The position numbers and the translations under genes are program-made. Positions 20,886-40,564 of a DNA stretch of 48,000 bases are shown piece after piece (within the stretch, counting starts at the first letter, position 1; each line of letters starts with the position of its first letter). Origin of the DNA: Cyanobacteria bacterium J06554_1 (GTDB lineage Bacteria > Cyanobacteriota > Cyanobacteriia > Phormidesmidales > Phormidesmidaceae); assembly GCA_038534515.1 (NCBI GenBank), contig JBCAWO010000033.1, forward strand, positions 8,613 to 56,612, written 5' to 3'. The notes under the pieces were generated by a model. It ran no database searches. It was not told the DNA's origin and worked only from the letters and a program-made list of their open reading frames with translations.

Positions 20886-21890
20886 TCAAGCCCCATAGCC
20901 AAGCCGTACCAGCTGTTCTCCCGCAATCTCATCACACATGGCAATTTCAGCCTCAGACAGATGCTCTTTCCAATCACCCACTGAGCCTGACCTAACATAT
21001 TGCCCATCGCCTTTTTTCGCTACCCGTTTAATATCTGCTGCCGCTACAATTGCGCTCACCTGTGATTCATCCCAGCCCAGGTTGGCAAACTCAAACATCT
21101 GCTGCAAACTTCTCTCCGGATCGGCCTTAAGGGCTTCGTAGCGCACCGTATGAACTCGCGACTGTAGGCTAGGTCGCTCCCTAATGAGCTCGCCCCATTC
21201 CACACATTGCTTCCACTGACGAATTGCGCCCGCTGTGCCTATTTGGGCCCATCGTTCTCGCTTTGCCAGCGCATTGTAGGACACACATACATCTCGTCCA
21301 TCCCGGAGCACCTCAACAATGCGAGCTTCCGGAAACCGGCACAAAATTTGCTCAGCATAGCGAATGTGCATCGGTGTCTTTTCTAAAACTGTTTGACCAG
21401 GTTTACCGTACCGTTTAAAGAAACGATCAAACATCGCTGCAATCAATTCTTCTGCTTGGACCAATCCGCGGTTAGTTTCTAGAACCTCAGCCCGAATTGC
21501 GCTGATGAGTAAGCTGAGCTCCCGATAGCTGACTAATCCATGCAGACCATGGCTATCCGGTCGATTTAAGATCTGGTAGTCCCGTAAGATCCCTGGCCAA
21601 ATGTTTGCAGGTTTGAAGCCAAACAGTAGGGGTTTTAAGCCATAGCGTCGCAAAATTCCCTTCCATGCCCGCAGTCGTTGTTGCCAGTCCCACCTTGGCA
21701 ACTCCACAAATGGCTCATACACCAGTCGATATACATGGGTTTCCCTCGGTACCACCAAAACGTCTGGATGTTGGGCAAGCAAAGATGTTACCCACGAGGT
21801 CCCTGAGCGTGGGCAGCCGACAACAAATAACTTGGGGCAGGGGGACAGTTGACCCATATCAATATGATTACCGATCGCTTGTGTACGCAT
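20886..21890 (-). CDS. PAPS-dependent sulfotransferase family protein
   Basis: A 5'-PSB loop (GCPRSGTSW) and a 3'-PB-like motif (LRDGRDVCVSY) are present. Confidence 0.8.
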   Translation of the reverse strand: MRTQAIGNHIDMGQLSPCPKLFVVGCPRSGTSWVTSLLAQHPDVLVVPRETHVYRLVYEPFVELPRWDWQQRLRAWKGILRRYGLKPLLFGFKPANIWPGILRDYQILNRPDSHGLHGLVSYRELSLLISAIRAEVLETNRGLVQAEELIAAMFDRFFKRYGKPGQTVLEKTPMHIRYAEQILCRFPEARIVEVLRDGRDVCVSYNALAKRERWAQIGTAGAIRQWKQCVEWGELIRERPSLQSRVHTVRYEALKADPERSLQQMFEFANLGWDESQVSAIVAAADIKRVAKKGDGQYVRSGSVGDWKEHLSEAEIAMCDEIAGEQLVRLGYGA

Positions 21891-21974
21891 ATCACAATCA
21901 ATAACAATAAAGTTAGTAAACGGCCCCTTTAATCTTCAATTTTTCTCGGTGATGGAGAAAAATGCCTGTCTGCA

Positions 21975-23141
21975 TTATGGAGACGAGGCTGGAGGATGAG
22001 AGGTTCGTAATCGATGGCCGATACCGATTTCTGTATATACGTCAGTATTCACTGCCGGGGTAGACGTGACCGGATAGATCAACTGACTAAACCGAGCCGC
22101 ACATTGGGCCAGTGTGCGGCTCTGATAGTGGGTCTGGGCATTGTCCGCAATTGCCTGTAATGAGGAGGGTTGAGCAAATTGCTGTAGGGATGATGTCACC
22201 ACGTAGTGATGGTTTGCCACAATGCCATCCTGCGCCCTTAACCCATGGCCGTTACAAATTGGCAGCAGTCCGTGGGAGCAGTAGGCGGCATATACGGTAG
22301 ATTTGGCTAGATTCTGGGGAAACCGTCGATAGTCAAAGATCCCCGCCAGGGACTTAGCCATTAGCTGGCTGATTTCAGGTGCTGATAAAAAGCCTGTTTT
22401 TACCACCGTTACATCCAGTTCCTGGCTGTCCCACTCAACTGGACGCCCCACATCGTAGAGGGTGTCGATCTTGAGTAATTGACAAACCCGATTGATGGTC
22501 TGGAAGTTGTGGCGATAGACGCGGGTGCGATCGCTACTGCCAAATACAATCAACGAACGCTGCCGCTCAGACAGCGGCGGCACATTCCCCAATTCTCCGA
22601 TAGTTGAAAAATTCGGCACACAGTGGACGGGGGCCTCGGTCCACCCAGCTAAGGTTTGCTGAAATGCGGCATTATTCGTCACCACCACATCGGCCACCTG
22701 GGCTAATCCACGGGATACCCGCCGCTGTACAAAGTTAGGACAGCGAATTTGCCTGTAGCGCAGGGTGGGCAGCTCATGAAACATCACCACAATCCGTAAT
22801 CCCCTCTGTTTTAGGCTTTTTAGGGCATCAACCAGCCACATCGGCGTATCTAGTTTGCCCAGCAGATACGGGTAATTACTGTATTGGAGAAAAATAGTTG
22901 ATATATGTTCAGGTACCTGATCAATCAGCCCTTGCGCCGTATGGTGATTGAGCCGATGCACGGCAAACTGATCTAACGTTGGCTGCAGTCGAGGGTTGGG
23001 TCTAAATACCAAGAAGTCTGAAAGAATCTTACTGTGGTCATGCAGCTGGTGAGCCAGCTGTAGAGCATAGTCACCGACACCGTCCACGTCTGGAAAGAGT
23101 CGAGGCACTATTTGTAGAATTCGAGTGGGTTGAGCGGTCAT
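21975..23141 (-). CDS. probable GT-B fold glycosyltransferase (GT4/GT1-like, divergent)
   Basis: The N-terminus (RILQIVPRLFPDVDGVGDYALQLAHQL) resembles GT4 N-termini. VVVTNNA and VPNF segments sit in the expected order. The C-terminal half matches only loosely. Confidence 0.45.
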   Translation of the reverse strand: MTAQPTRILQIVPRLFPDVDGVGDYALQLAHQLHDHSKILSDFLVFRPNPRLQPTLDQFAVHRLNHHTAQGLIDQVPEHISTIFLQYSNYPYLLGKLDTPMWLVDALKSLKQRGLRIVVMFHELPTLRYRQIRCPNFVQRRVSRGLAQVADVVVTNNAAFQQTLAGWTEAPVHCVPNFSTIGELGNVPPLSERQRSLIVFGSSDRTRVYRHNFQTINRVCQLLKIDTLYDVGRPVEWDSQELDVTVVKTGFLSAPEISQLMAKSLAGIFDYRRFPQNLAKSTVYAAYCSHGLLPICNGHGLRAQDGIVANHHYVVTSSLQQFAQPSSLQAIADNAQTHYQSRTLAQCAARFSQLIYPVTSTPAVNTDVYTEIGIGHRLRTSHPPASSP

Positions 23142-23199: not shown

Positions 23200-25701
23200 T
23201 CACCTCAACCCCGCAAGATATTTTTTAACGTGCTCCACCAGCAGCGGTGTTGAACGCTGGTTAAACAAGTTGCCAAAGAAGCCAGGAATTGTTGTTAGCT
23301 CCACGCCATCCTTGGCCACTACCTGCCACCCCAGCTCTCGGCCAAAGTACCAATCCAAAATTTGGATATTTGCACGGAACAGTTTTACTGGCCCTGCATA
23401 GGGCTGGGGGACATAGTGTTTTGCCGCTAACTCATTGGCTTTTTGTGCCCGAGCATAGCGATATTCGTAGGGAACGTTGGTCTGATCTGGTTGCGGTCGG
23501 TCGGTGGTGAGGTTGTCAGGATTGGGGACGTCCATCAAGTTCTGAGGAGAACCCCCATTAGGACTGGTTGGACCGGAGTTGTTATCCCGATTTAGGGGGC
23601 TGCTAGCAGGTACAACCTTTTGCCAAATTTTCTTAGGTAGCGCTGCTAAGTTCTCCCATCCCCCGTGGTAGTAGTAGTTTTTTCGTACCCAGAACACCCC
23701 CAGCTGTAAACGGCTCTGGAGCTTTACCAACAGTGTCTCAGGCAGCTCCCCCGGGCGATAAGAATCGATTAGAACAACACTTTCCACCTCTTCACCCTCG
23801 GTCTGGAGCTGTTGCGCAATCTCAAAGGCCACCGCTCCCCCTAAACAATGGCCTCCGACTAGATAGGGTCCTTTAGGCTGCACCATTCGCATTTCTTTAA
23901 TGCAGTCTGTTGCCAGTGCCTCCACGGTTGTGTGGGTGACCTCACTGCCGTCTAGATCGGGTCGCTGCAGTGCATAAAAAGGGCGCTCGGTGCCCAACAG
24001 CTGGGAGAATCTGGCCCAGGTGAGGGCATCTGCCGAACCGCCGTGGAAAAAGAACGGTAGCCGGGAACCGCTGGTCTGAATGGGCACCAGGCTCGACCAC
24101 TGGGATACGGGCTGCTCCTGACTGAGTAGGGCCGCAAACTGCCGTACATTGGGGGCCTGGAACAATGTTGCCAGGGGTAGGGCACAGTCTAGCTGTTGCT
24201 GCATTTGGTTAAACAACTGCACCGCCAGTAGCGAATTGCCCCCAACATCAAAAAAGTTGTCGTCTACGCTAAGGGGACTTACCCCCAAAACAGATTCCCA
24301 AATTTGAGTTAGCGTTAGCTCCAGTGGATTGCTTGGGGCAAAGAAATTTCCCTCCAGCTGGTCTCGGCTGAGTATGGGCTCAGGGGGGGCTGCCGCTGGT
24401 CGCCTTAGGGGCTGCGGTGGCAAAATCTGAGCAATAGAGCGGTCAGGATTGTCTGTGATGGCTTCTAATACTGTCTGAAATTGTTCTAATAGCGGTGCCA
24501 CAGCCTGAATATGGGAGCTGTCTGAGCGCAGCATGACCGTGAGCCGATGCCCTGGTTTGATAATGACCGTTAGGCCATAGGTGCTCACTAGCCCAGACTG
24601 CAGATTCTCTACCTGAAAACTACGCTCTGTCGCTGGCTGGATTGGGTAGTTTTCAATGACGAGCAGACTGTCAAACAAGCGACCTGACACCTGGCTCCAG
24701 CTCTGAATTTGGTCTGGTGAGGCATAGCCATAGCGACTGGCTTGGGTCTGCTGGGTTTGGAGACTCTGTAGCCACTCAAGTACCGTTTGCTCTGGGGCCA
24801 CCTGTACCCGGACGGGCAGTACGTTGATCAGCAGTCCGACGATGGTGTCTACCCCGGCCAAATCACCCTGGCGGCCTGAAACGGTTGCCCCAAATAGGAC
24901 ATCTGGGTTACCGCTGTAGCTGTGTAAAAGCAGGGCCCAGATGCCCTGCATGAGGGTATTGAGGGTGAGACGGTGCGATCGCAACATCCCCTGCATCCTG
25001 GCCGTCACCTCGGCAGAAAACGTAATGGCGGGAGCCGAAGTATCTGAAACTTTGCTAGTTGCTGGCCCAACGGGCAGCTTTGTTGGCTCCACAAACCCCT
25101 GCAAAGCCCCTTGCCAAAATTCAGCCGCTGCGGCATTGTCTTGCTGCTTTAGCCAGCGAATATAGCTTTGATAGGTGGGCCCGGACGCGACAGGTGCGGG
25201 TTTTCCCTGCCTTAACTGTCCATAGCAATCAAAGACCTGATTAAACACGAGCGCTCCAGACCAGCCATCCAGCATTAAATGGTGGCAGCTCCATATCAGC
25301 TCATAGGCAGTCTCACCCAGGCGAATCAGGGCTAGACGAGAGATGGGGGCTTGGGTCAGCTCAAAACCCAGCTCTCGATCCTGTACCAAAAAGTCTGTCA
25401 AGGCTGTTGTTTGATCGTCTCGACCGCGCCAATCTAGATGGGTCCAGGGAATAGCCGCCTTTCGGGCCACCACCTGCAAGGGCTGTTTTACCCCTTCCCA
25501 ATGCACCGAGGTGCGCAATACGGCCTGTTGACCCACAACAGCGTCCCAAGCCTGCTCCAGTAAAGTTGAGTCCACCTCACCCCGCAGCGTACAGCGCATG
25601 TGAATCAGACCCTCTTTGGCCGAGGTTTGCAAACTGTGCCAGAGAAATGCCTGCTGTAGTGGGGCCAGGGCATAGATGGTTTCGATGTTTTTCTTATCCA
25701 T
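23200..25701 (-). CDS. NRPS terminal module C-T-TE with no A domain
   Basis: The C domain carries HHLMLDGWS at aa 140-148. The carrier domain reads DDNFFDVGGNSLLA, with Ser490. The alpha/beta thioesterase shows PFFFHGG, GGHCLGG and VVLIDSY. A GGAGG Shine-Dalgarno sequence is present, and only 2 nt separate the ATG from the upstream stop. Confidence 0.9.
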   Translation of the reverse strand: MDKKNIETIYALAPLQQAFLWHSLQTSAKEGLIHMRCTLRGEVDSTLLEQAWDAVVGQQAVLRTSVHWEGVKQPLQVVARKAAIPWTHLDWRGRDDQTTALTDFLVQDRELGFELTQAPISRLALIRLGETAYELIWSCHHLMLDGWSGALVFNQVFDCYGQLRQGKPAPVASGPTYQSYIRWLKQQDNAAAAEFWQGALQGFVEPTKLPVGPATSKVSDTSAPAITFSAEVTARMQGMLRSHRLTLNTLMQGIWALLLHSYSGNPDVLFGATVSGRQGDLAGVDTIVGLLINVLPVRVQVAPEQTVLEWLQSLQTQQTQASRYGYASPDQIQSWSQVSGRLFDSLLVIENYPIQPATERSFQVENLQSGLVSTYGLTVIIKPGHRLTVMLRSDSSHIQAVAPLLEQFQTVLEAITDNPDRSIAQILPPQPLRRPAAAPPEPILSRDQLEGNFFAPSNPLELTLTQIWESVLGVSPLSVDDNFFDVGGNSLLAVQLFNQMQQQLDCALPLATLFQAPNVRQFAALLSQEQPVSQWSSLVPIQTSGSRLPFFFHGGSADALTWARFSQLLGTERPFYALQRPDLDGSEVTHTTVEALATDCIKEMRMVQPKGPYLVGGHCLGGAVAFEIAQQLQTEGEEVESVVLIDSYRPGELPETLLVKLQSRLQLGVFWVRKNYYYHGGWENLAALPKKIWQKVVPASSPLNRDNNSGPTSPNGGSPQNLMDVPNPDNLTTDRPQPDQTNVPYEYRYARAQKANELAAKHYVPQPYAGPVKLFRANIQILDWYFGRELGWQVVAKDGVELTTIPGFFGNLFNQRSTPLLVEHVKKYLAGLR

Positions 25702-25703
25702 GG

Positions 25704-27650
25704 TTAAGCCTCCGCTGTGGGTTGACCGGTGAGCTGCCCAATAAAATCATCTAGCTCGGTTTGGTTAAAATCAGCATCGGGAAAATCAGACGGGGTAAAG
25801 CCACCGCTGGTATCGGTACAGTGGGCGATGAGAGATTTTAACTGGCTGAGGTATTGGTGGGCCAAAGACTGTAGGGTGTCGCTGCGGTGAATCTGTGGGT
25901 CGTAGCGCCAGGTGACCTGTAGCTGTCCATGGGCAACCCAAGCGTTGATTTCCAACAGGTAGCTCCGCTGGTTGTGGGGATCTCTCAGCGTACCCACGTC
26001 AATGTTTTGGAGCACCTGCAGATTGGTGGGGACCTGCTGCCCCAAATAGTTAAACAACACCTCCGATGGTGGGGCCTGGGCCAGACGCTGTTGGGTGGTG
26101 CCATCGTCCAAATAGCGCAAAATGCCATGGCCAATGCCCCGATCGGGTACCTGACGCAGCTGCTCTTTGACTGACTTTAGGGTTTCTACGGTGTCACTAA
26201 CCTGACCGTGCAGGCTGACCGGATAGGTTGTAGTAAACCAACCCACCGTCCGCGACACATCTATGCCAGGGGCAATCGGCTCTCGACCATGGGCTTCTAT
26301 CTCTATGCGGACATTGCCCGTTTCTGCCCCTACCCAATGGAGCAATGTCTGGGTCAGGGCCGTGAGCAGGGCATCGTTAATTTGGGTGTTGTAACTGGCT
26401 GGAACCGTTTGCAATAGTGTTTGGGTGTCTGGTTGGCTCAGGGCAACGGTGACCGTCTGGGCGGTGCCTTCTGTGGGGGGTGGCCCATCTAAGAAATCAC
26501 GGGGTAACTGCACGACAGATTGTTCCACCTGGCCAAACCAAAAGGGGGCTTCGGATTGTCGGGCTGTGACCTGAGCTGTGAGGGTTTCAGCCCAAGCTTT
26601 AAAGGAGGTTGTTTTGGCAGGAGGCTGGGCCGCCCCACCCAACAGAACTGATAGGTCGTCGAGAAGAATTTGCCAGGAGACGGCGTCTACTGCCAAATGG
26701 TGCAGACTCAGCAACAGCCAGTCTTGAGCTGCCCCACGGGTGAAAAGGGCCGTTCGCATCAGTCCGCCGCTGACGAGATTTAGATCGTTGTGCAGGTGAG
26801 TGCCATGGTGGGCGACGGCTTTGAGCTGGTCAGATTCGCCTAGATGGGTGAGGTCTATGGACGTCAGCGCAGGTGGACTGTCGGTATTGGCTATGTGTTG
26901 ATGGTCGTCGAAGCGCAGCCTGAGGGCATCGTGATGGGTCCAGAGCGTTGCGATCGCACCCTCCACATCACCCTTGCTCACCCCCTGAGGCAGCTCCACC
27001 AGCATTGCCTGATGCCAGTGCTGCGGTGCCGCCAAATCTTGCTCAAAGAACCAGGTTTGGATTGGCGTCAGCGGCACCTTTCCCGTCACCAGCTCCTGGG
27101 TGGCTACCACCTCAGGGGCCACATTGACCACAGCGGCCAGTTCCGCCACCGTCGGCTGCTCAAATAGCTGGTTGGGCGCTAGCCGTAACCCCGCCTCCCG
27201 AGCCCGAGACACAATTTGAATACTGAGGATTGAATCTCCCCCCAGCTCAAAAAAGTTGTCATCAATGCCAACAGTCCCTAGCCCCAGCACATCTTTCCAG
27301 ATCTGGACTAACGTCTCTTCTGTCGGAGTCCGGGGGGTAGCCGCATTGGGCATAGCTGCCACCGGCTGCGGTTCAGGCAGGGCATTAGTATCAACCTTGC
27401 CATTGGCGGTTCGTGGCATCTGGGTCAGGGAGACAATCGCTGTGGGCACCATGTAGTTGGGTAGCTTAGCCTTTAGGGCATTCCGCAAGACAACCGCATC
27501 GATCTCTGCCGAACGCCCCACCACATAGGCCACCAGCCGTTGGGAAGACCGATCCGATACCTCCAGCTGCTCTAACTGCTGAGCGAGCGTTTTTCGCTGA
27601 CTGGGTGAGAGGGCCGCCACCCGTTGATGTAGTTCCTGATTTATGGTCAT
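25704..27650 (-). CDS. NRPS fragment A(sub, a9-a10)-T-E
   Basis: The N-terminus (RLVAYVV...LPNYMVPTAIVSL...TANGKVD) corresponds to A-domain motifs a9/a10. It is followed by a T domain (DDNFFELGGDSILS). The epimerase motifs PLTPIQTWFFE, HHLAVDAVSW and EAHGRE are all present. Confidence 0.9.
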   Translation of the reverse strand: MTINQELHQRVAALSPSQRKTLAQQLEQLEVSDRSSQRLVAYVVGRSAEIDAVVLRNALKAKLPNYMVPTAIVSLTQMPRTANGKVDTNALPEPQPVAAMPNAATPRTPTEETLVQIWKDVLGLGTVGIDDNFFELGGDSILSIQIVSRAREAGLRLAPNQLFEQPTVAELAAVVNVAPEVVATQELVTGKVPLTPIQTWFFEQDLAAPQHWHQAMLVELPQGVSKGDVEGAIATLWTHHDALRLRFDDHQHIANTDSPPALTSIDLTHLGESDQLKAVAHHGTHLHNDLNLVSGGLMRTALFTRGAAQDWLLLSLHHLAVDAVSWQILLDDLSVLLGGAAQPPAKTTSFKAWAETLTAQVTARQSEAPFWFGQVEQSVVQLPRDFLDGPPPTEGTAQTVTVALSQPDTQTLLQTVPASYNTQINDALLTALTQTLLHWVGAETGNVRIEIEAHGREPIAPGIDVSRTVGWFTTTYPVSLHGQVSDTVETLKSVKEQLRQVPDRGIGHGILRYLDDGTTQQRLAQAPPSEVLFNYLGQQVPTNLQVLQNIDVGTLRDPHNQRSYLLEINAWVAHGQLQVTWRYDPQIHRSDTLQSLAHQYLSQLKSLIAHCTDTSGGFTPSDFPDADFNQTELDDFIGQLTGQPTAEA

Positions 27651-27729
27651 GGCTCAGTGGTGTCTGCTGGTCTGAGGGGCTTGTCTATGGGGCTATCAAG
27701 AGAACGCAAAAGAAAATAATCCACAGCCA

Positions 27730-29085
27730 TCATGGTGGACCGACCTCCATCAAATGCCCTGGCTGTTCCCTTAATAAATCTTCCACCAGGTTAACCGCGC
27801 GATTCTTGTGGGTATACGTCACAAAACAGTGACGCATACGCTCCAGGTTTGTTCGATAGCTTCCATCCGTTAGCAATGTGCGAACATGTCCACACACCTG
27901 TGCCGCATCGGTTTGTTTTTGATCGTCTACAATCCCTAGCCCATGGTACGTTACCCGCGCCGCATTGCCATGTTGGTCGGCGCAGCCCAGGGAGTACACC
28001 ACCATCGGCACACCGCAGCTAATACACTCATTAATACTGTTAATGCCGCTGTTGATAATGGCACAGTCAGCCTGCTTAAGCACCTCTAGCTGAGGAGCCC
28101 AGCCAAAGGCATAAACATTTGTCGGGACATTGTCCAATTCAGCTGCCCCCAGACTGCCCCCTAGTCCCAGGACCCAATCCCACTCGGGAGAAGAGGATGC
28201 TGCTGCGATAATCTGTTGCAGAAACTGTTTGTCTGCTTTTGCCAGACTACTCAAACCACAGTAAATCAGAGGGCGTTTGCTACTGGGACGGCGCTCAAAA
28301 ATCTGTTTTAAAGATGGCTCTGTGATTGCAGATGTCTGGGGATGTTCAAACACCATCGGCCCCACATAGCGCATAGACGAGTGGGGCTGGTGGGGAAAGT
28401 CCAGCTCTAATGCGTTCATACAAAGAATCGGTAAAGTCTCACCCGGGTAGGGCACCAGCCACTGTCTAAACCCAAAGCGCAGCCGTAGGGGGAGGCCGAT
28501 CTGTCGGGCATAGCAGCCCAGTACAGAAATCCAATCGAGACCCACTCGCCGCCACCGTTCCTGTTGAAACTCTTTCCATTTTGTCAGGCCATAGCAGAGC
28601 CAGCTCCATTCAATCCCCAGGCGGGAACCTGGCCAGCCTTGCCCTGGAATCGTTTTGGTGTGAATCGGAGGTAGATTGGGGCGCTTCCAAACCGATAAAA
28701 ACGGACATAGCAACGCCACCGGCAGCTGTTCCACGACGGCTGCCATAATGTGTGGATGCATTTCAATATCTAGAAGCAACAGATCGGGAGCCAGCCCTTG
28801 CACGGTATCTATAAAGTGCTGTATCCCCAGGGCATCCACCGCCCGCTGTTGCCGCTGTTGTTGTAAACGCACCTTGGCCCATCGCCCCATGGGTGGTTCC
28901 CCCAGCTGCATCACCCAGCGCTCCAGCTGCACATAGGGAATTCCCTGGGCTGTTACCGGTTTACTCAGATCGGCCGGGCTAGCATAGGTAACCCGATGCC
29001 CAGCCCGGTGTAGCTGCTGTATTAGGGCCAAACTGGCGTTGAGAATCCCCGTTAGTCCTCCGGTGATGCAGACAATGTGGGCCAT
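27730..29085 (-). CDS. GT1-family (UDP-glycosyltransferase / MGT-like) glycosyltransferase
   Basis: The canonical GT1 N-terminus is HIVCITGGLTGILNASLALIQQLHRAGHRVTY. A UDPGT-signature-like stretch (GWAPQLEVLKQADCAIINSGINSINECISCGVPMVV...DQHGNA) is present. Its own GGGAGGGG Shine-Dalgarno sequence lies upstream, and its ATG is 1 nt after the upstream TAG. Confidence 0.85.
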   Translation of the reverse strand: MAHIVCITGGLTGILNASLALIQQLHRAGHRVTYASPADLSKPVTAQGIPYVQLERWVMQLGEPPMGRWAKVRLQQQRQQRAVDALGIQHFIDTVQGLAPDLLLLDIEMHPHIMAAVVEQLPVALLCPFLSVWKRPNLPPIHTKTIPGQGWPGSRLGIEWSWLCYGLTKWKEFQQERWRRVGLDWISVLGCYARQIGLPLRLRFGFRQWLVPYPGETLPILCMNALELDFPHQPHSSMRYVGPMVFEHPQTSAITEPSLKQIFERRPSSKRPLIYCGLSSLAKADKQFLQQIIAAASSSPEWDWVLGLGGSLGAAELDNVPTNVYAFGWAPQLEVLKQADCAIINSGINSINECISCGVPMVVYSLGCADQHGNAARVTYHGLGIVDDQKQTDAAQVCGHVRTLLTDGSYRTNLERMRHCFVTYTHKNRAVNLVEDLLREQPGHLMEVGPP

Positions 29086-29086
29086 G

Positions 29087-31864
29087 CTATTCCCCTCCCT
29101 CGGCAGCGGCCAGTAGGGTCTCTGCCTGCTCCGGTGTTAGGGTGGCCAGTCTCTCCACTATGGTTTCTAGGCTGTCTGTTGTGGACCGAGCGACAACGAC
29201 GGCTTCTTGGATGGTGGGTTGCGATCGCAACACATCCTCAATCTCCCCTAGCTCAATCCGATAGCCCCGAATCTTCACCTGCCGGTCACAGCGCCCCAAC
29301 CATTCCAGGGTGCCATTGGCCCGATATCGAGCCAGGTCACCGGTTTTATAGAGCGGAGTCGATGGTAGATAGCCATGCCCGTCGGTAATAAACGCCGCCG
29401 CCGTGCGTTCTGGCTGATTTAGATAGCCCTGGGTGACCCCGTCACCCCCGATGTAAAGCTCTCCGATCGCCCCGGTGGGAACGGGCTGTAGCTCGTCATT
29501 TAATAGATAAATCTGAGTATTGGGAATGGCGGTACCAATGGCAACCGGCCCGGAGGGAAGCTCTGCTGGAACCCGGTAGGCCGTACACCACACCGTGGCC
29601 TCGGTGGGGCCATACTCGTTATACAAATCCGTGGCGGGCAGCTTGCCATAGTGACGTTGCACCAGCGCCCGCGGACAGGCCTCACCCGCCACCACCACCG
29701 TCCGCAGCTTAGCTAGCTGTCGCGGATCGGCAGCGTCTAGCAGCAACGCATACAGCGTGGGTACACACAGGGTATGGGTGATTTGCTGCTGTGCCATCAG
29801 AGTGGCCAGCTGCTGTAAATCCTGTTCAATTCGCTCCGGCGGCAGCACCAGCGTCCCCCCCTGGCAGAGCGTCCAAAAGATGCCGGCCACCGAGCTATCA
29901 AACGCAATGGATGAGAGCAGTAGAAACCGCCCAACGGGCTCTGGGTAAACATGGGAGCGTGCCGTCGTAGAATGCACCAAATTACGATGGCTAACCATCA
30001 CCCCCTTTGGTCGTCCCGTAGAGCCAGAGGTATAGATAATGTAGGCTAAATCATCTCCGCTAGGCCCCTGGGGTGATCGATCGTAGGGGCTGCTGGTCTC
30101 ACTCTCTCCAAAATGAGATGCGTCAACGCTCACCCCGTCCAAGTAAACAACCGGGACCTCCGTATCCGGTAGCCCTATCCCTGGTTGCGTCAGCAACAAC
30201 CGTGGTTTCGTATCCTGCAAACAGTATTCAATCCGCTCTGCTGGATATGATGGGTCCAGGGGCACATAGGCTCCACCTGCCTTTAACACGGCTAGAATGC
30301 TAACAATTCTCGCTAAGGACGGATGTAGACACAGGGCAACCCGTTCACCAGGTCCCACCCCCTGGGTCCGTAGCCAGCTAGCCAGCTGATCGGCTCGCGA
30401 ATTTAGCTCACCATAGGTCAGGGTTTGGCCTTCAAAAACAACAGCTAATCCATCGGGTGTCCGCTTCACCTGAGCCTCAATCAGCTGATGAATGGTGAGA
30501 TTTTTGGGATAGTCAATGGTCTTGCTGACGGTCTGCTGCTCGGTCGCGGTGAGGCGCGGTATCTGGGCCAGGGTTGCCTGGGGCTGGTCAATAAACGCAG
30601 TCAGCAACAGCTCCAGGTGTTCGTGCAGACGGGCGATGGCCTCCGCCTCAAACCGGGCCGGGTCGAACAGCAACAACAGGTCTAACGATTTTCCGGGTAC
30701 CACTAGCAGGGCCAGGGGATAGTTGCTTTGCTCCAAATAGCGAATGTCTTGAATTTCAAACCCCAGGTCAAGACTGGCCGCCGTTGGATAATTTTCAAAG
30801 ACAACAATGCTGTCGAATAACGAACTGCCCACGGGCATAGGGCTCCAGCGCTGAATGTCGCTCAGCGGTGTGGTCTCGTACTGCCGCAGCTCCAGAAGCT
30901 GCTGCTGTCGTGCCTGTAGCCAGGAGAGTAACGATTGTTCTGGTTCAACGGGCACCCGCACCGGCAGCGTATTGATAAATAGACCCACCATGGTTTCCAC
31001 ACCACTGAGGTCCGTTGGTCGGCCTGAAACCACGGACCCGTAGGTGACGTCCGTTTGCTGGCTGTAGTGGCTAAGCAGCAACGCCCAGGCTCCCTGGATT
31101 AGGGTGTTTAGGGTGAGCCAATGCTGACGGGCAAAGGCTTGCAAAGATCCATATAGACCCGGTGCCAAGGCGCGACTCTGTTGGCGATAGGGCTGGGGGG
31201 AGAGATCGCTGGTGGTGCGGGCGGCGGGCAGCGGGGTGGGGTGTGTGAGCCCCTGGAGCTGGGAGCGCCAAAATGTTTCGGCTTTGGCAGTATCCTGATT
31301 TTTTAACCAGGCAATATAGTCTCGATAGGGCCGTAGGGGAGGGAGCGCTGGTGCTGTCTGACGACAGTTGGCCTGATAACAGGTCAAGACTTCCTGCCAG
31401 ATAATGGGAATGGACCAGCCGTCGGCCAGGACATGGTGAAAACTCCAGATAAATTGGTGGGTATTGTCCTGTAGCTGGATGAGCTTAAAGCGAGAGATGG
31501 GGGCCTGGAGTAGGTCGAAGCCCTGGATGCGATCGCAACTCAAAAACTCAGTCAGTTTTTTCTCTTGTTCAACTAGAGGATAGTCTCGCCAGTCCTCCCG
31601 ATCCCAGACCGCATCCACCTGCTGACGCACCACCTGAAGCGGTTCATCTAAGCCTTCCCAGAGAAACGCCGTTCTAAGCACAGGCTGTCGGTCAATGACC
31701 TGCTGCCAGGCTGCTTGAAATTCAGGAATCTGTAAATTACCCCGGAGCTTGCAGCTATATTGCTCAATGTACACCCCCGATCCAGGCGCGCTCAAAGCAT
31801 GGAACAGCATTCCCTGCTGCACCGGAGAAAGAGGGTAAATGTCGGCTACGTTGTCTAGCTGCAT
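29087..31864 (-). CDS. NRPS fragment: DCL-type C domain plus A domain through motif a8, with a9-a10 missing
   Basis: YPLSPVQQGMLFH and HHVLADGWS mark the C domain. A motifs present are LAYIIYTSGSTGRPKGV, FDSSV, NEYGPTE, GELYIGGDGVTQGY, YKTGDLARY and GRCDRQVKIRGYRIELGEIE. The protein ends 49 aa after a8. The ATG at 31864 has a GGGAGG Shine-Dalgarno sequence, whereas the tracked ORF starts at GTG 31876. Confidence 0.9.
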   Translation of the reverse strand: MQLDNVADIYPLSPVQQGMLFHALSAPGSGVYIEQYSCKLRGNLQIPEFQAAWQQVIDRQPVLRTAFLWEGLDEPLQVVRQQVDAVWDREDWRDYPLVEQEKKLTEFLSCDRIQGFDLLQAPISRFKLIQLQDNTHQFIWSFHHVLADGWSIPIIWQEVLTCYQANCRQTAPALPPLRPYRDYIAWLKNQDTAKAETFWRSQLQGLTHPTPLPAARTTSDLSPQPYRQQSRALAPGLYGSLQAFARQHWLTLNTLIQGAWALLLSHYSQQTDVTYGSVVSGRPTDLSGVETMVGLFINTLPVRVPVEPEQSLLSWLQARQQQLLELRQYETTPLSDIQRWSPMPVGSSLFDSIVVFENYPTAASLDLGFEIQDIRYLEQSNYPLALLVVPGKSLDLLLLFDPARFEAEAIARLHEHLELLLTAFIDQPQATLAQIPRLTATEQQTVSKTIDYPKNLTIHQLIEAQVKRTPDGLAVVFEGQTLTYGELNSRADQLASWLRTQGVGPGERVALCLHPSLARIVSILAVLKAGGAYVPLDPSYPAERIEYCLQDTKPRLLLTQPGIGLPDTEVPVVYLDGVSVDASHFGESETSSPYDRSPQGPSGDDLAYIIYTSGSTGRPKGVMVSHRNLVHSTTARSHVYPEPVGRFLLLSSIAFDSSVAGIFWTLCQGGTLVLPPERIEQDLQQLATLMAQQQITHTLCVPTLYALLLDAADPRQLAKLRTVVVAGEACPRALVQRHYGKLPATDLYNEYGPTEATVWCTAYRVPAELPSGPVAIGTAIPNTQIYLLNDELQPVPTGAIGELYIGGDGVTQGYLNQPERTAAAFITDGHGYLPSTPLYKTGDLARYRANGTLEWLGRCDRQVKIRGYRIELGEIEDVLRSQPTIQEAVVVARSTTDSLETIVERLATLTPEQAETLLAAAEGGE

Positions 31865-32700
31865 GGTGCCTCCCACTCTGACAGAATGCAGAAATCAAAC
31901 AGGCCGTTGACGGACTTTTGTTGGTCTAAAATTTTTAGACCCGCTGTTTCAACTTCTGCCTCGAGTTCTCCAGGCACAAAAAAGTGGTGAAAGATCCCCA
32001 CATAAAACCGATCGCCAAACCGGGGCCGCCAGTCACTGCCAGACAGTTTTGCCGCCGTTACCGAGAGCCAGTGCCGTGCCTTTTCCCACAGGCGATCTGG
32101 CTTTACCAGTTGCACATAGGACATCACAATCACTCCGCCTGGAGCGAGCATGGTGGCGCAATGCTCCAACAGCAAAATCCGGTCCGCCGGGTCTGGAAAC
32201 GTGTCGTACATCCAGGGCGACAGATAAACAACATCGTAGAGAGTTTCAGGGGTGTAGTCAAAAAAATTGGCCAGTTCAAAACGGGCTTTAAAGCCCGCGT
32301 CGCGGGCATGGGCAATGGCTCCGTCAATCATGGAGCGGTTGTCGTCAATACCAGTGACATCAAATCCTCGCTCTGCAAAAAACTTTGCCTCTCGCCCCTG
32401 ACCACAGAAGGCGCTCAGCAGTTTGCCGCTGCTGTGGTGCTGGCTCAAATAGGGTAGAATTTTCTCTTCGCAATCTAGCTGATAGTGGCTGGGATCATAG
32501 GTGGCAGAATGGGATTCGTAGACCTTACCCATGTAGTCATTGAGTGCCGTTTTGCCCAGGACACCCACCGCCAGCGCCTGCCCCACCTGCTGCCACCGGC
32601 CGGCCGTTTGACCCATGAGAACAGTCTGAGCCAGGCTAACCCGCCAGGAGGTTTTAGGTATTGGAGACATTGTTGGGTTAACTTGCTCATTGACGACCAT
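31855..32700 (-). CDS. class I SAM-dependent methyltransferase
   Basis: Motif I-like LLSAFCGQGREAKFFAERGFDVTGIDDN is present. Post-I/II regions follow (YDVVYLSPW, LAPGGVIVMSY). Its 3' end overlaps the next NRPS start. Confidence 0.75.
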   Translation of the reverse strand: MVVNEQVNPTMSPIPKTSWRVSLAQTVLMGQTAGRWQQVGQALAVGVLGKTALNDYMGKVYESHSATYDPSHYQLDCEEKILPYLSQHHSSGKLLSAFCGQGREAKFFAERGFDVTGIDDNRSMIDGAIAHARDAGFKARFELANFFDYTPETLYDVVYLSPWMYDTFPDPADRILLLEHCATMLAPGGVIVMSYVQLVKPDRLWEKARHWLSVTAAKLSGSDWRPRFGDRFYVGIFHHFFVPGELEAEVETAGLKILDQQKSVNGLFDFCILSEWEAPCS

Positions 32701-32760: not shown

Positions 32761-35700
32761 TCATCCGCCGCTGTCTGATTGGCTGCCTGACCTATTTAAC
32801 AGGGCCGCGATTTTGCCAAGCTTTTGACGGTCAAGATTGGCCAGGGGAAAGTCTACTGGGGTTATGGTGGTGTCCTGTTTTGATTCGGGAGACAGGTAGT
32901 GGGTGATTTGCGATCGCACCCCCCGCATCATACCCTCGGCCCAACCCTGGATCGTTTCCCGCCGGTGCCGCTGGCCATAGGTCCACTCCACCTGGAGCTG
33001 CCCCCTGACAACGGCCGCATTCACCTCCAACAAATATCGCCGCTGTCCTTGAGGACTGCGCGATAGCTCTAGCCCACGGGCCAGCTGGAACATAGACCCC
33101 GGTGGCACTAGTCCGGCTAAATCCCCCAAATAGTTAAAGAGAATGTCTGGCTGAGGTTGAGCCTCTAACTGCGCTTTTACCTCAGGGTCACCCCCCAGGT
33201 AGCGTAACAATCCATAACCGATGCCATTTCTAGGAACCTGTCGCACCTGCTCCTTTACAGACCGTAGCTGTTCTCCTGCATCTGTTTGAGGCAGCGTTAG
33301 CAGCAATGGAAACACCGTTGTAAACCAGCCCACGGTCCGCACCAAATTTGCTCCAGGGACAATCGCTTCTTCTCGTCCATGGCCTTCCAAATCTAGCAGT
33401 AGCTGGTTGGTTTGATTGCAAAGCGACCGGGCCAGGGCCGTCAACAGAATTTCGTTGACTCGGGCCCGGGCGACCTTTGGCAGCTCCCTCAGGAGTCTAT
33501 GGGTTTGCTCAACAGTTAAGCAGGTGGTGAGTGTGTGTGCAGATGCAACCCGATTGTCAGCGCTGATCCGAGCATTGTCTTTTGGTAGAGGGGGAACTGC
33601 GCCCTTGGCAGTGCCTAGCCAGTAGGCTAGCTCCGACTGAAACGCCCCTGATGAAACGGTTTTGCCTAGCTCTGTTGACCAGGTTTGGAACGACATCGTC
33701 GGCAAGGCCCGAGCGACTTTTTCTCCCTGGGTCTGGCGGTAGGCGGTTTCCAAATCATTTAACAGCATCAGCCAGGAAACTCCATCCACCGCTAAATGGT
33801 GAATGATTAGCAGCAGCCGATTGGGGCGATTGTCTCCCAGGTTAAATAATGCCGCCTGTACCAGCTTTCCGGTGGTCAGGTCGAGACTGGTTTGCAGGTC
33901 TGCCTCGGTGGCCGCCATGGCCCGATCTTGGCTAACCACCGACCGATGGGAGAGATCGACATAGTTAAGCAAACGACCGGGTATCCCTTGGCGCTGCTGC
34001 CAGCCCGACTCTCCTAAGATAAACTGGCAGCTCAAAATATTATGGCGCTGCACCAAATGCTGTAGTGCCGTTTCTAGGGCTGATGGGTCTAAAGCCTGGG
34101 CTACATCCAGCAGCAGACTTTGATTCCAATGGTGAGGCTCGGTTAGGTTTTGTTCAAAAAAGCTTTGCTGAATCGGAGTGAGCGGTACCTGGTCAGTGGT
34201 GTGTACCTGGTCGGCCCCCAATAGTTGGGTTGATTTTATCTGGGCCAAGACCCCGGCCACCGTCAAGTGCTGTAGAATTTGCTGCGGCGATAGGGGAAGG
34301 CCTGCCTCCGTCGCCTGGGCTGCAATCTGGATCGCCGTAATCGAGTCGCCACCTAGATCAAAGAAGTTGTCGTAAATACCCACCGACTCTATGCGTAAAC
34401 ACTGGGCCCAGATAGCTGCCAGATGGGTCTCCCATTCATTCCCTGGAGCCACATAATCCCTATCTGTCCCTAGCCGCTGTCGCTGGGTATAGTCCGGTGA
34501 CGACAGTAGTGGGCGATCTACTTTGCCATTGGGGGTTAGGGGCAAATAATCTAGCAGTATAAAAGCTGTCGGTACCATGTAGTCCGGTAGCGTTTGCTGT
34601 AGGGCATCTCGGATTTCTCCATGGGTCAGGGAGGACTCTGACGTTACCACATAGGCCAAGAGAGACTGACGCCCCTGATTAGTTTTTTCAGCAATAACAA
34701 CGCCCTGTTGAATGGAAGGATGCTGATTTAAAGCGGCTTCCACCTCCCTTAGCTCAACCCGAAACCCTCGGATTTTGACCTGATGATCTAGCCGGCCCAG
34801 AAACTCCAGGTTGCCGTCTGGTAGATAGCGGGCCTGATCGCCGGTCTTATATAGCTTTCCAGCCCCAAAGGGATTCTCGATAAACCGTTCCGCCATCAGC
34901 TCAGGACGATTGAGATAGCCTCGACTTAGCCCTGCCCCCCCAATAACAATCTCTCCTTTAATACCCATGGGCACCTGCTGCCCCTGATCATTGACAACAT
35001 ACACCTCGTAACCGGGGACAGCCTTGCCAATGGGGACAATCCCTTGGGGATCGGTAACGGTGTTAAACGCATAGAACGTGGCACAGACGGTGGTTTCTGT
35101 GGGTCCATAGCCATTGACGATGCGTAACTGAGGTATGCGTTGGCGATAGCGCTGTAAAAGTTTCTGTTGAATGGGCTCCACGCCCACTAGAATGCGATTT
35201 AGAACAATCTTATGATCAGATCTTTCTAGCTCCTGAACGACCATGGATAGCAGTGCTGGTGGAATATAGGCGCTGGTAATGTCATGGGTGATCAGGTACT
35301 GAGCAAATTGGTTATGGCTAGCCACGGTCTCTGGCGGTACGAGGTATACCGTGCCACCAAAACATAAATTTGAGAAAATCTCCCAAACCGACACATCAAA
35401 CCCATAGGAGCACAGCGCTGTTCCCCGCAGCTGCTCTCCTGCTGGGGCGGTCTGTTCAAATCCATTCACCATGGCGAGAACATTACGGTGCTCCACCATC
35501 ACTCCTTTGGGTTGGCCCGTAGAACCCGAGGTAAAGAGAATATAGGCCAAGTCCTGAGCAGTTAGCTCCACCGCAGGAGCCCCTGTGGGTTCCTGGGCGA
35601 TGGCGTCCCCATGGGGCTCGAGACAGATTATTCGGTCTTTTAGTTGGCCGACGGGACATGTTGCCATCAACGCCTGCTGCGTTAACAGAATAGCTACATT

Positions 35701-37437
35701 GCTATCCTCCACCATAAAGCGGGTGCGCTCTACCGGATAGGCCGGATCAATGGGCAGATAGGCAGCCCCCGCTTTTAGAATAGCTAGAATGCTGACAATC
35801 ATGGAGACTGAACGCTCCATGAACAGACCCACGGTTACACCTTTCTGGATGCCCTGTTTACCTAGATAGTGGGCCAGCTGATTAGCTTGTGCATTTAGCT
35901 CAGCGTAGGTGAGGATTTGCTTGCCAAGCACCACCGCTATTTGGTCAGGTGCAAGATCTACCTGCTGCTGAAACCGTCCTACCAGGGTTTGAGTATATCT
36001 GAGGGTCTCTTTTCTTTGATCACTTGCCAACGCCTGGCCCGACCCAAACAGCAAGGCTCGCTCTTCTGCAGCCAGAATATCTACCGCTTCAATTTCCTGG
36101 TGCGCATCGTCTAGCCAAGCATCCAACAGGTTATAAAAGTGTTCAGTTGCCCACTGACGTTGCGTATCAGCAATTAAATCGCTATTAAAATCAAACTGCA
36201 GTGTGAAACTTCCGGTGGCATCAAAGTCCTGCACCTCTAGCCGCAGATGGTGCTGGCTGTCTCCATACCCTGAATGAATCCAGTCTGTTTTGACTGGCAT
36301 GCCATAAAACTCGGGAAAAGTAACGTTGATGTAGCTGAGAACAACATTGACATCGCGGCTAATGCCATGGTGACTGACACCGGACTGGGCATAGCGCAAA
36401 AATGCCATGGACTCCCTGGCCACCTTGCCTAAAAGCGAGGTAAAAGTTTCCCCTGGTTCAATGTCCACCTGGAGTGGAAACAGCTCCATAAAGACTCCCG
36501 GTGTCTCTTTTAGAACCGGTGTTGGTCGATTATGGGCTGGGGCGGCAATGGCTAGTTTATGGCTGCCACTGATTCGATACAGATAGGCAAACACCAGGGT
36601 TAAAAACAGATTGAACTGGGACTGATGAATGGATAATGTTCGAGCTTCTGGGGTTTTGGCTAAGGCTCGTAACGCCTCAGATCGCTCTGGCCCTAGTTCA
36701 AAATAGGTGCGTTCTGTGCGAGCGGTGGCTACCTCTGCTGTCTGGCCATTCTGACCATACAGGGGCACTGACGATGGTATGTGCTCTCGTTTCTGTTGCC
36801 AATGGGTGATGGCCTGCCACGCTGGCTGCTGTTCTGACTCAGCATAGTGAAGAAAGGCGGGCAGGTCAGCGGCTGTCGCCAATGTACCGGTTAGCGATTG
36901 GCCATAGTATTCCTGTAACCGTCGGTAGAGCAGTGAAACCGACCAGTTATCGGTAATTAAGTGATGCTGATTTAAATACCAAATAAACCGATCCGACGAT
37001 AGTTTTAGCAGTGCCGAATCAAATAAACAATCTTGCAGGTTTAGCAGACAGGTGGAACGCTGCTGCATCCATGTCTGTGATGCCTGGATAGGATCTATAT
37101 CTGTAGAAAAATCTATAACTGGAAGCAAATAGTTTGATGTGGCAGCGACCGTCTGCTGCGGAACACCGTCCGCCTCGGTGATGGTCAGACGGAGAATATC
37201 GCTATGGGCTACTAAGGCTTGAAATGCCCGTTGGAAGTGGGCAGGGTCAATCTCTCCTTGGATGGTGAAACTAAACACCATGTTGTACAGGGGAGCCTTT
37301 GGGTTGAGCTTTTGGCCCAACCATAGCAGCAGCTGCCCCGGCGTCAGGTTGGATTTTGCTGCCAGGGTATCAATCTGTTGGCCTAATCCTTTGGACTGAC
37401 CTTTGGACTGACCCTTGGACTGACTATCCGGCACCAT
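32761..37437 (-). CDS. NRPS module C(starter-type)-A-T-E
   Basis: The C domain reads LTPGQLLLWLGQKL...HHLITDNWS. A motifs are LAYILFTSGSTGQPKGV, FDVSVWE, NGYGPTE, YKTGDQARY, GRLDHQVKIRGFRVELREVE, LPDYMVPTAF and NGKVDR. The T domain is DNFFDLGGDSITA. E motifs are PLTPIQQSFFE, HHLAVDGVSW and EGHGRE. Confidence 0.95.
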   Translation of the reverse strand: MVPDSQSKGQSKGQSKGLGQQIDTLAAKSNLTPGQLLLWLGQKLNPKAPLYNMVFSFTIQGEIDPAHFQRAFQALVAHSDILRLTITEADGVPQQTVAATSNYLLPVIDFSTDIDPIQASQTWMQQRSTCLLNLQDCLFDSALLKLSSDRFIWYLNQHHLITDNWSVSLLYRRLQEYYGQSLTGTLATAADLPAFLHYAESEQQPAWQAITHWQQKREHIPSSVPLYGQNGQTAEVATARTERTYFELGPERSEALRALAKTPEARTLSIHQSQFNLFLTLVFAYLYRISGSHKLAIAAPAHNRPTPVLKETPGVFMELFPLQVDIEPGETFTSLLGKVARESMAFLRYAQSGVSHHGISRDVNVVLSYINVTFPEFYGMPVKTDWIHSGYGDSQHHLRLEVQDFDATGSFTLQFDFNSDLIADTQRQWATEHFYNLLDAWLDDAHQEIEAVDILAAEERALLFGSGQALASDQRKETLRYTQTLVGRFQQQVDLAPDQIAVVLGKQILTYAELNAQANQLAHYLGKQGIQKGVTVGLFMERSVSMIVSILAILKAGAAYLPIDPAYPVERTRFMVEDSNVAILLTQQALMATCPVGQLKDRIICLEPHGDAIAQEPTGAPAVELTAQDLAYILFTSGSTGQPKGVMVEHRNVLAMVNGFEQTAPAGEQLRGTALCSYGFDVSVWEIFSNLCFGGTVYLVPPETVASHNQFAQYLITHDITSAYIPPALLSMVVQELERSDHKIVLNRILVGVEPIQQKLLQRYRQRIPQLRIVNGYGPTETTVCATFYAFNTVTDPQGIVPIGKAVPGYEVYVVNDQGQQVPMGIKGEIVIGGAGLSRGYLNRPELMAERFIENPFGAGKLYKTGDQARYLPDGNLEFLGRLDHQVKIRGFRVELREVEAALNQHPSIQQGVVIAEKTNQGRQSLLAYVVTSESSLTHGEIRDALQQTLPDYMVPTAFILLDYLPLTPNGKVDRPLLSSPDYTQRQRLGTDRDYVAPGNEWETHLAAIWAQCLRIESVGIYDNFFDLGGDSITAIQIAAQATEAGLPLSPQQILQHLTVAGVLAQIKSTQLLGADQVHTTDQVPLTPIQQSFFEQNLTEPHHWNQSLLLDVAQALDPSALETALQHLVQRHNILSCQFILGESGWQQRQGIPGRLLNYVDLSHRSVVSQDRAMAATEADLQTSLDLTTGKLVQAALFNLGDNRPNRLLLIIHHLAVDGVSWLMLLNDLETAYRQTQGEKVARALPTMSFQTWSTELGKTVSSGAFQSELAYWLGTAKGAVPPLPKDNARISADNRVASAHTLTTCLTVEQTHRLLRELPKVARARVNEILLTALARSLCNQTNQLLLDLEGHGREEAIVPGANLVRTVGWFTTVFPLLLTLPQTDAGEQLRSVKEQVRQVPRNGIGYGLLRYLGGDPEVKAQLEAQPQPDILFNYLGDLAGLVPPGSMFQLARGLELSRSPQGQRRYLLEVNAAVVRGQLQVEWTYGQRHRRETIQGWAEGMMRGVRSQITHYLSPESKQDTTITPVDFPLANLDRQKLGKIAALLNRSGSQSDSGG
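37388..37423. repeat. three tandem 12-bp units encoding (QSKG)3 at the NRPS N-terminus
   Basis: The units read cctttggactga cctttggactga cccttggactga. They lie just inside the 5' end of the 32761..37437 CDS and abut the carrier-protein stop at 37424. Confidence 0.8.
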
Positions 37438-37711: not shown

Positions 37712-37721
37712 GGTTTTTCTC

Positions 37722-37753
37722 CTGGGGCTAGATGGGCTAGATGGGCTAGATAG
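37722..37753. repeat. ~3.5 tandem 9-bp units (gatgggcta) at the A-domain/carrier-protein junction
   Basis: The sequence reads ctggggcta gatgggcta gatgggcta gatag. On the minus strand every unit contains TAG, and one of these is the stop of the 37746..39365 CDS. Confidence 0.75.
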
Positions 37754-39365: not shown

Positions 39366-39367
39366 CG

Positions 39368-40516: not shown

Positions 40517-40564
40517 TTTCAGTGTTGGGGTGGGGCAGTTAGGAGTCAGGTGAGGCAAGAAAAA

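Follow-up and report, generated by a model that had tools for sequence, protein, structure and literature searches.

Adenylation (A) domains of nonribosomal peptide synthetases (NRPSs) that are interrupted by a second enzyme reportedly come as A-M-A, A-KR-A, and A-Ox-A types, which Labby et al. are said to have described in 2015. In a 2020 survey of interrupted A domains by Lundy et al., the string "glycosyl" occurs nowhere in the main text (PMC8341866). A split rather than an interrupted A domain is described for corallorazine biosynthesis in Corallococcus coralloides (RSC Chem Biol, 2024). According to that paper, the A domain of Crz1/Crz2 is divided at a8/a9 over adjacent genes; behind A8 comes an N-methyltransferase (nMT) with a stop codon at its end, and the next gene begins with A9 and A10 (PMC11342130). 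The paper also states that Crz1 and Crz2 activated glycine in vitro only when they were mixed 1:1 (PMC11342130). Here, we analyzed a stretch of 48,000 nucleotides (nt) of contig JBCAWO010000033.1 (the window), in which the A domain of one NRPS module is divided between two genes, NRPS2a and NRPS2b, with a free-standing glycosyltransferase (GT) gene in the break. A first-pass annotation of the window had known of no description of an A domain divided into separate polypeptides around a GT; of a split A domain as such, Crz1/Crz2 is an earlier case, split at the same a8/a9 position. We propose, with a probability of about 0.72 and judging from sequence, that the window encodes a naturally split A domain that is rejoined noncovalently through a tail-leader pair and that the GT is a trans-acting tailoring enzyme.

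The A domain is divided between two genes that flank a GT gene

The split module has the following features, in which C, T, and E denote condensation, thiolation (peptidyl carrier protein [PCP]), and epimerization domains, Asub denotes the A subdomain, and aa denotes amino acids.

29087..31864, minus strand: NRPS2a, with C domain, A core (a1 to a8), first A-subdomain strand, and C-terminal tail (Pfam)
29237..29296, minus strand: core motif a8, GRCDRQVKIRGYRIELGEIE (motif reading of NRPS2a)
29090..29185, minus strand: C-terminal tail of NRPS2a, 32 aa, STTDSLETIVERLATLTPEQAETLLAAAEGGE, predicted short linker and acidic helix-turn-helix; kept in 74 distinct homologs
27730..29085, minus strand: free-standing GT1 (GT-B, MGT/OleD-like), 451 aa (Pfam UDPGT, EryCIII-like_C, and Glyco_tran_28_C)
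27651..27729, minus strand: spacer of 79 nt from the GT gene to NRPS2b (GT stop TGA, then 79 nt, then ATG)
25704..27650, minus strand: NRPS2b, with leader, rest of the A subdomain, T domain, and E domain
27540..27650, minus strand: N-terminal leader of NRPS2b, 37 aa, MTINQELHQRVAALSPSQRKTLAQQLEQLEVSDRSSQ, predicted helix-turn-helix and linker; kept in all paired loci
27390..27539, minus strand: rest of the A subdomain, with RLVAYVV, a9 LPNYMVP, and a10 NGKVD (Pfam AMP-binding_C, positions 25-76 of 76)
27129..27317, minus strand: T (PCP) domain of the split module (Pfam PP-binding, residues 112-174; FFELGGDSI core present)
25809..27083, minus strand: epimerization-type condensation-family domain (Pfam Condensation, residues 190-614; NCBIfam TIGR01720; HHLAVD present)
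25707..25808, minus strand: COM-like C-terminal tail of NRPS2b, after the E domain

NRPS2a starts with ATG and is 100% identical to protein P0121 of the metagenome-assembled genome "Cyanobacteria bacterium J06554_1." Pfam placed Condensation at residues 11-448 and AMP-binding at residues 467-819 and found neither AMP-binding_C nor PP-binding in this protein. After a8, NRPS2a runs on to the strand EAVVVAR (29186-29206), which is followed by the 32-aa tail and a TAG. The ATG of the GT gene lies 1 nt past this TAG (TAGcATG), and the frame changes there. The GT gene has its own Shine-Dalgarno sequence of the GGAGG type, GAGGGAGGGG, just 5' of the ATG, and ends in TGA. NRPS2b then supplies RLVAYVV (27519-27539), a9 LPNYMVP (27444-27464), and the a10 Lys (AAG, 27396-27398). 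The break lies between EAVVVAR, after a8, and RLVAYVV, before a9.

We found that NRPS2a and NRPS2b abut exactly on the Pfam and NCBIfam models, without a gap or duplication. On full-length NRPS models of NCBIfam, NRPS2a and then NRPS2b matched SolG at 105-1005 and then 1008-1153, EntF to 888 and then from 891, and DltA to 437 and then from 437. Motifs a1 to a8, the a10 Lys, the T-domain Ser, and both HHxxxD motifs of the split module are intact, and the 10-residue specificity code of the split A domain is DSA[C/T][V/I]AEVWK. These data bear out most of what the first-pass annotation had said of the three open reading frames (ORFs). Coordinates and Pfam agree with an upstream ORF made of a C domain, an A domain through a8, EAVVVAR, and a 32-aa tail; the intact 451-aa GT1 with its own Shine-Dalgarno sequence, the TAGcATG junction, and the 79-nt spacer are all at the positions claimed. 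RLVAYVV, a9, the a10 Lys, T, and E are present downstream as described; the leader is 37 aa long, not 35 aa. The Pfam search that had been suggested for the three ORFs returned the expected domains, and AMP-binding_C at 25-76 confirms that NRPS2b carries a9-a10 at its N terminus.

No terminator-like site was found in either junction (NRPS2a/GT or GT/NRPS2b), and the three genes therefore most likely form one operon. Within the three ORFs, Pfam matched neither an intein nor a Hint domain, and an Rfam scan of the window gave 0 matches. We rejected an intein or protein trans-splicing at the break, because there is no Hint domain and the flanks of the break are helical tails. We also rejected readthrough or frameshifting to a single A-GT-A polypeptide, because the frames differ, stops intervene, and extra genes occupy the gap in relatives.

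The split recurs in reference genomes, metagenomes, and an isolate

To follow the arrangement beyond the window, we scanned reference genomes and metagenomes. The reference-genome scan gave 10 loci with a GT at 52 to 85% identity; the upstream A-core end was present in 10/10, and the downstream Asub start was present in 9/9 that had enough downstream sequence. A metagenome scan with a GT profile added 36 further loci. In the latter scan, all GT relatives that were 44% or more identical and had sufficient flanking sequence lay within the same break. The GT relatives in the break span 44 to 97% identity. Relatives with 43% identity or less were not in a break; one neighbors an NRPS whose A domain is intact, in a Saprospiraceae genome, and a second belongs to a polysaccharide locus. 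In the isolate Leptolyngbya sp. PCC 7375, the order is C-A(core), methyltransferase, GT, and Asub-T-E, with gaps of 1 to 2 nt and a 4-nt overlap. Among the 120 best NRPS2a homologs, we counted 74 distinct C-A(core)-plus-tail proteins, whose named sources are mostly cyanobacteria and include at least one member of the Chloroflexota. The specificity code is kept across split relatives down to ~47% identity.

We concluded that the arrangement recurs far beyond chance, in dozens of independent assemblies, and, from the sequences compared, that the split layout is evolutionarily stable and widespread. The synteny of partial C-A, GT1, and Asub-T that the first-pass annotation had proposed to look for is thus found in reference genomes, metagenomes, and PCC 7375.

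Only one intact ortholog above 52% identity was found. This protein, P0159 (locus L052:119-8622), has the layout C-A-T-E and is 61% identical to NRPS2a; it has no tail and no leader and has a 13-aa loop instead. In a neighbor-joining tree, the bootstrap value was 100% for 23 split proteins together with P0159 and 1% for the 23 without P0159. Because P0159 is nested in the split clade, its intact form suggests a secondary refusion. In L052, the in-break GT is gone, and a GT that is only 30% identical to the window GT is placed after the gene.

The content of the break in the window and in related loci (L numbers) was as follows.

GT only: the window and most loci
GT and Stf0-type sulfotransferase: L005/L026 and L030
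GT and methyltransferase: L019
GT and Sulfotransfer_3-type sulfotransferase: L021
GT, methyltransferase, and sulfotransferase: L022 and L023
Methyltransferase and GT: L020, L024, L032, and PCC 7375
PF27704-type methyltransferase instead, free: L053 and L054 (split relatives, ~50% identity)
PF27704-type methyltransferase fused behind the tail: L055, with C-A(core), tail, and methyltransferase, then leader and Asub-T

As judged from these layouts, the gap is a variable slot that holds one to three free tailoring genes in relatives, in varying order. The enzymes encoded within the break are likely to act on the residue of their own module. The first-pass annotation had presented the GT as the interrupting enzyme. 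Its placement at a8-a9 and the separate polypeptides stand; the GT is not a fixed occupant, nor is it the counterpart of an interrupting domain, since the gap content varies and distant relatives have a methyltransferase.

Conserved tail and leader elements track the split

We aligned the two halves of the split proteins separately. In the upstream halves, EAVVVA is followed by a low-complexity linker of ~4 to 50 aa and then by a conserved element of ~25 aa with the consensus S-l-E-x-L-v-x-A-L-x-x-L-x-P-E-x-A-E-a-L-L-x-a-v-E. The downstream halves begin with a conserved element, with the consensus L-x-Q-R-v-a-A-L-S-P-x-Q-R-x-x-L-x-x-x-L, which is followed by a linker of ~3 to 60 aa and then by QRLVAYVV. 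In comparisons of the window with three close relatives, the ratio of nonsynonymous to synonymous substitution rates (dN/dS) was 0.19 to 0.22 for the tail, 0.24 to 0.29 for the leader, and 0.19 to 0.22 for the a9-a10 part, figures that come from few sites yet are consistent over all three comparisons.

The leader is also conserved in methyltransferase-type relatives with paired halves, and both motifs flank the free methyltransferase of L053 and L054 and the fused methyltransferase of L055. Both are absent from the in-frame-interrupted A domain of the same cluster family. They are likewise absent from ordinary A domains, which matched NRPS2b only from residue 32-38 on in a representative search with its first 100 aa, a search whose ranking is dominated by giant multimodule NRPSs. 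In a homolog search with the first 123 aa of NRPS2b, 0 of 29 scored candidates carried the leader. Neither element matched a Pfam family at cutoff, and neither matched a PDB sequence with an E value of <1.

All of these comparisons taken together indicate that the tail and leader go with the split and do not depend on which gene is in the gap. We read them as docking elements, which likewise are short, conserved helices tethered by flexible segments of differing length. Since the same elements flank all gap contents, they most likely join the A-domain halves and not the GT. As a separate observation, the NRPS2a ORF of the metagenomic relative L030 (L030:1062-3896) ends early (...EAVVVPHSLMPGNASNEDADN), without the conserved tail, which may be an assembly frameshift or a real loss.

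A model of the fused fragments has the fold of an A subdomain

We modeled the window fragments (a8 to tail and leader to a10) as a fusion with AlphaFold2 (AF2). Without an alignment, the model was poor, with a predicted local distance difference test (pLDDT) score of 44; when aligned tails and intact A subdomains were supplied, the same fusion reached a pLDDT of 80. The latter model shows the hairpin, helices, and strands of a canonical A subdomain, with three long helices over the tail and leader. In 10-residue blocks, the pLDDT of these helices rises to ~87 in the tail and ~90 in the leader. Foldseek matched the model to the A subdomains of Txo2, LgrA, PheA (1amu), and EntF and many others. 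The best matches had template modeling (TM) scores of 0.53 to 0.57 (query normalized; ~60 query residues are the extra helices) and root mean square deviations of 2.1 to 2.8 Å.

In the model, the break sits in the loop between two A-subdomain strands, and the two fragments appear structurally complementary in their fused form. The first-pass annotation had expected the break to map to this subdomain, and consistently with this, the fused model superposes on PheA-type A subdomains with the break between two strands.

The protein encoded in the break resembles GT1 glycosyltransferases and lacks two His residues of OleD

The GT scored 43.1 bits against Pfam UDPGT (cutoff, 19.5) and 41.3 bits against EryCIII-like_C (cutoff, 31.7), and its best PDB match was OleD (E = 3e-22). 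W329, P331, Q332, E353, and Q371 are invariant, and the C-terminal donor-binding motif is present. By these sequence features, the protein is classed as a GT1/GT-B nucleotide-sugar glycosyltransferase. Its score against the NCBIfam MGT model (TIGR01426) was 126.5 bits, below the cutoff of 260, and the GHxxP His is absent. We found ~400 homologs, mostly in Leptolyngbya-like marine cyanobacteria.

At residues 9-18, the clade has GGLTGI(L/F)NAS where OleD has AAHGHVNPS; in the HMMER alignment, GHVNP of OleD aligns with GILNA. At residues 343-350, the clade consensus is INSGINS where OleD has THAGMGS, with Asn345 replacing His. The remainder of the donor-binding motif is intact.

The remaining genes complete the cluster

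The cluster is complete in the window, with all genes on the minus strand, and the same gene set recurs in relatives. TE denotes a thioesterase domain.

37424..41665, minus strand: starter cassette, with ornithine cyclodeaminase, PigA/RedW-like prolyl-PCP dehydrogenase, stand-alone A, and PCP (family matches)
32761..37437, minus strand: NRPS1, C-A-T-E, with an uninterrupted A domain (Pfam)
31855..32700, minus strand: free-standing S-adenosylmethionine (SAM)-dependent methyltransferase between NRPS1 and NRPS2a (Pfam; ortholog in L003)
23200..25701, minus strand: NRPS3, terminal C-T-TE, without an A domain (Pfam)
20886..23141, minus strand: further tailoring genes, a weak GT4-like protein and a sulfotransferase (kept in relatives)

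From its gene families, the starter cassette should supply a pyrrole-2-carboxyl (or dehydroprolyl) unit, and the gene content indicates that the cluster product should be a pyrrole-capped, glycosylated, sulfated peptide. Since NRPS3 has no A domain, its carrier must be loaded in trans or used otherwise. In many relatives, the NRPS3 equivalent is fused to NRPS2b, giving Asub-T-E-C-T-TE.

At 31855..31864, the stop-codon end of the free-standing methyltransferase gene and the ATG region of NRPS2a share 10 nt. This overlap and the 1-nt gap ahead of the GT gene suggest that translation is coupled along the operon. Within the starter cassette, the PCP ORF (37424..37885) overlaps the stand-alone A gene (37746..39365) by ~140 nt on the minus strand; PP-binding covers only residues 81-140 of this ORF, and homologous PCP genes in L011 and L056 are ~80 aa long. 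To judge by these lengths, the true PCP start is probably an internal codon.

The A domain of NRPS1 carries an in-frame a8-a9 insert of ~350 to 430 aa in L006:1012-6909, L008, L009, and L053:2147-5692. The insert has a CxxC...CxxC zinc-ribbon-like motif, an SGGKDS PP-loop motif, and a weak Pfam QueC match, and an A domain with such a PP-loop-type insert may be an interrupted A domain of an undescribed kind. Neither the window nor L003 has an insert in the NRPS1 A domain; there, a free-standing methyltransferase gene follows instead. At the upstream edge of the cluster lies a gene for a HupE/UreJ_2-family membrane protein (41727..42995, minus strand), which lies at this edge also in the distant methyltransferase-type relative L053 (L053:810-2207). 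This family is usually tied to Ni/Co uptake, and the presence of the gene hints that the product could be metal related.

Proposed assembly of the split module and alternatives to it

Because the arrangement is evolutionarily stable, a functional A domain that reassembles noncovalently is the best reading of the locus, as the first-pass annotation had also suggested. According to this model, NRPS2a and NRPS2b would be translated as separate proteins from one operon. The acidic helix-turn-helix tail of NRPS2a would pair with the helix-turn-helix leader of NRPS2b, each on a flexible linker, and the pairing would rebuild a canonical A subdomain. The rebuilt A domain would then adenylate an amino acid and attach it to the T domain of NRPS2b. 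Free-standing tailoring genes would use the intergenic gap that results from the split as their slot; in the window, the occupant is a single GT1 gene that is predicted to be translationally coupled to NRPS2a, and the GT would be expected to modify the residue or product of the split module in trans.

The main alternative is that the module works as a noncovalent interrupted A domain, in which the tail-leader bundle also recruits the GT for glycosylation on the carrier. The break is the very a8-a9 site at which in-frame auxiliary domains that act on T-bound substrates are found (PMC11355689). In addition, the break always encloses the tailoring genes, which are tightly coupled translationally; GTs of the in-break clade (at least 44% identity) occur strictly together with the split, and the re-fused L052 has only a 30%-identical GT, after the gene; the L055 methyltransferase is fused directly behind the tail; and the linkers, at up to ~50 to 60 aa, are long enough to span an enzyme. 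In contrast, the same motifs flank enzymes that are unrelated to one another (GT1, two methyltransferase types, and two sulfotransferase types), one to three of them in varying order, and this variety argues against a GT-specific binding surface on the tail or leader. Most known NRPS glycosylations take place after release, which also counts against recruitment. We consider recruitment of the GT to be unlikely, and the wider proposal, that the bundle is a general exchangeable platform on which a GT, methyltransferase, or sulfotransferase would modify the carrier-bound amino acid, is for us equally doubtful.

Two further explanations would deny the split module a working A domain, and we give both little weight. 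The split A domain could be catalytically dead, with the T domain of NRPS2b loaded by another A domain (e.g., that at 37746..39365) and the fragments serving as a scaffold. The pathway already needs loading in trans, given the C-T-TE layout of NRPS3, and a stand-alone A domain is present in the cluster. However, all ten core motifs are intact, the a10 Lys included; the specific code is conserved among split relatives to the ~47% identity noted above; the Asub part is under purifying selection (dN/dS, 0.19 to 0.22); and the Crz split domain is active (PMC11342130). A dead domain is very improbable on this evidence. More improbable still, to the point of being negligible, is an artifact or decay, i.e., a misassembly, a frameshift, a recent mobile insertion of the GT gene, or a pseudogenized module. 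The window does come from a metagenome-assembled genome, but dozens of independent assemblies and an isolate genome contain the same junctions; the tail, leader, and Asub all have dN/dS values well below 1; and the ORF of the GT is complete and encodes many invariant residues. Moreover, a single frameshift cannot restore one frame, because a 1-nt gap separates the stop from the GT start and a 79-nt spacer follows the GT gene. We rejected a recent mobile insertion, as loci whose GT is only 44% identical still have the arrangement. The first-pass annotation had named an assembly artifact or a decaying pseudogene as what could overturn it, and the independent assemblies, the isolate, and the low dN/dS exclude both.

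Several points weigh against the proposed noncovalent reassembly with a GT acting in trans. The tail and leader are candidate docking elements that would rebuild the A subdomain, and we infer their mutual binding from sequence conservation. The packing of their helices is likewise a prediction of the AF2 model, which is a covalent fusion built on an unpaired alignment without leader-half homologs. The deep branches of the neighbor-joining tree are poorly supported, and the number of split origins is not readable from it. The code DSA[C/T][V/I]AEVWK matched no amino acid that could be assigned with confidence, and some loading in trans in this pathway leaves room for less simple pairings. Activity of the A domain and the acceptor and timing of the GT are predictions from gene sequences. 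As for the GT itself, the His of the GHVNP motif is the general base in OleD and OleI. In the GT, Ile14 aligns with this His and is the clade consensus; because the N-terminal catalytic His is replaced, the chemistry of the GT, and even its catalytic competence, is uncertain. The GT may use another base, for example, the invariant D106, E108, or H112; alternatively, it may have an acceptor that needs no base or a different mode of working.

Implications

With upstream halves found in at least 74 distinct proteins, the split A domain, for which corallorazine (2024) is the one biochemical example, is a widespread and evolutionarily stable architecture. The helices of the tail and leader are probably what allows the split to function, and they would mark a natural intradomain break point with portable connectors. 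NRPS engineers now build such connectors artificially. Genome-mining tools that read C-A(truncated), GT, and T-E without an A domain as unrelated pieces will mispredict both the module and its product. Leptolyngbya sp. PCC 7375, a culture collection strain with the same architecture, offers a testable system. If the platform proposal were true, the locus would combine a modular, noncovalent interrupted A domain with on-line glycosylation by an NRPS.

Comparison with known systems

In a literature search whose coverage left most subscription journals outside, we found nothing on a GT at the a8-a9 site, on tail or leader elements, or on a gene slot. The same search found nothing beyond the corallorazine paper on a GT-interrupted or GT-split A domain or on a product of this cluster family.

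OleD/MGT-type GT1s and the window GT share the fold family and the C-terminal motif WxPQ...NS..E...DQ..NA. The window GT differs from them in its score below the MGT cutoff, in the replacement of both His residues, and in the location of its gene inside a split A domain.

Interrupted A domains resemble the window in having an auxiliary enzyme at the a8-a9 loop (a2-a3 is the known alternative). They differ in being one in-frame A-X-A polypeptide, whereas the window has three ORFs, with stops and a change of frame. A true in-frame interruption occurs in the same cluster family, in NRPS1 of L006, L008, L009, and L053, and it has no tail or leader helices.

The tail and leader appear analogous to NRPS/polyketide synthase (PKS) docking and communication-mediating (COM) domains, which also are short conserved terminal helices on flexible linkers that pair consecutive proteins. 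What known docking elements connect, however, are complete domains or modules (E to C or acyl carrier protein [ACP] to ketosynthase [KS]); the tail and leader would rejoin the halves of one subdomain. The ordinary E-to-C junctions of the window cluster have different, COM-like tails.

The closest described system is Crz1/Crz2. As in the window, a1 to a8 lie at the C-terminal end of one protein, a9-a10 lie at the N terminus of the next, and a tailoring enzyme is at the break; the layout with a fused methyltransferase is also that of L055, the distant relative of the window. The available text of the corallorazine paper names no docking tail or leader, and we set the two systems side by side by description, not by sequence (PMC11342130). 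In Crz, the N-methyltransferase is fused in frame to the upstream half, whereas the window GT is a free-standing third polypeptide, and the gap in relatives of the window holds one to three free genes. Judged by gene organization, what appears new relative to Crz is the free-standing GT as a third polypeptide, the tail and leader elements, and the variable gene slot.

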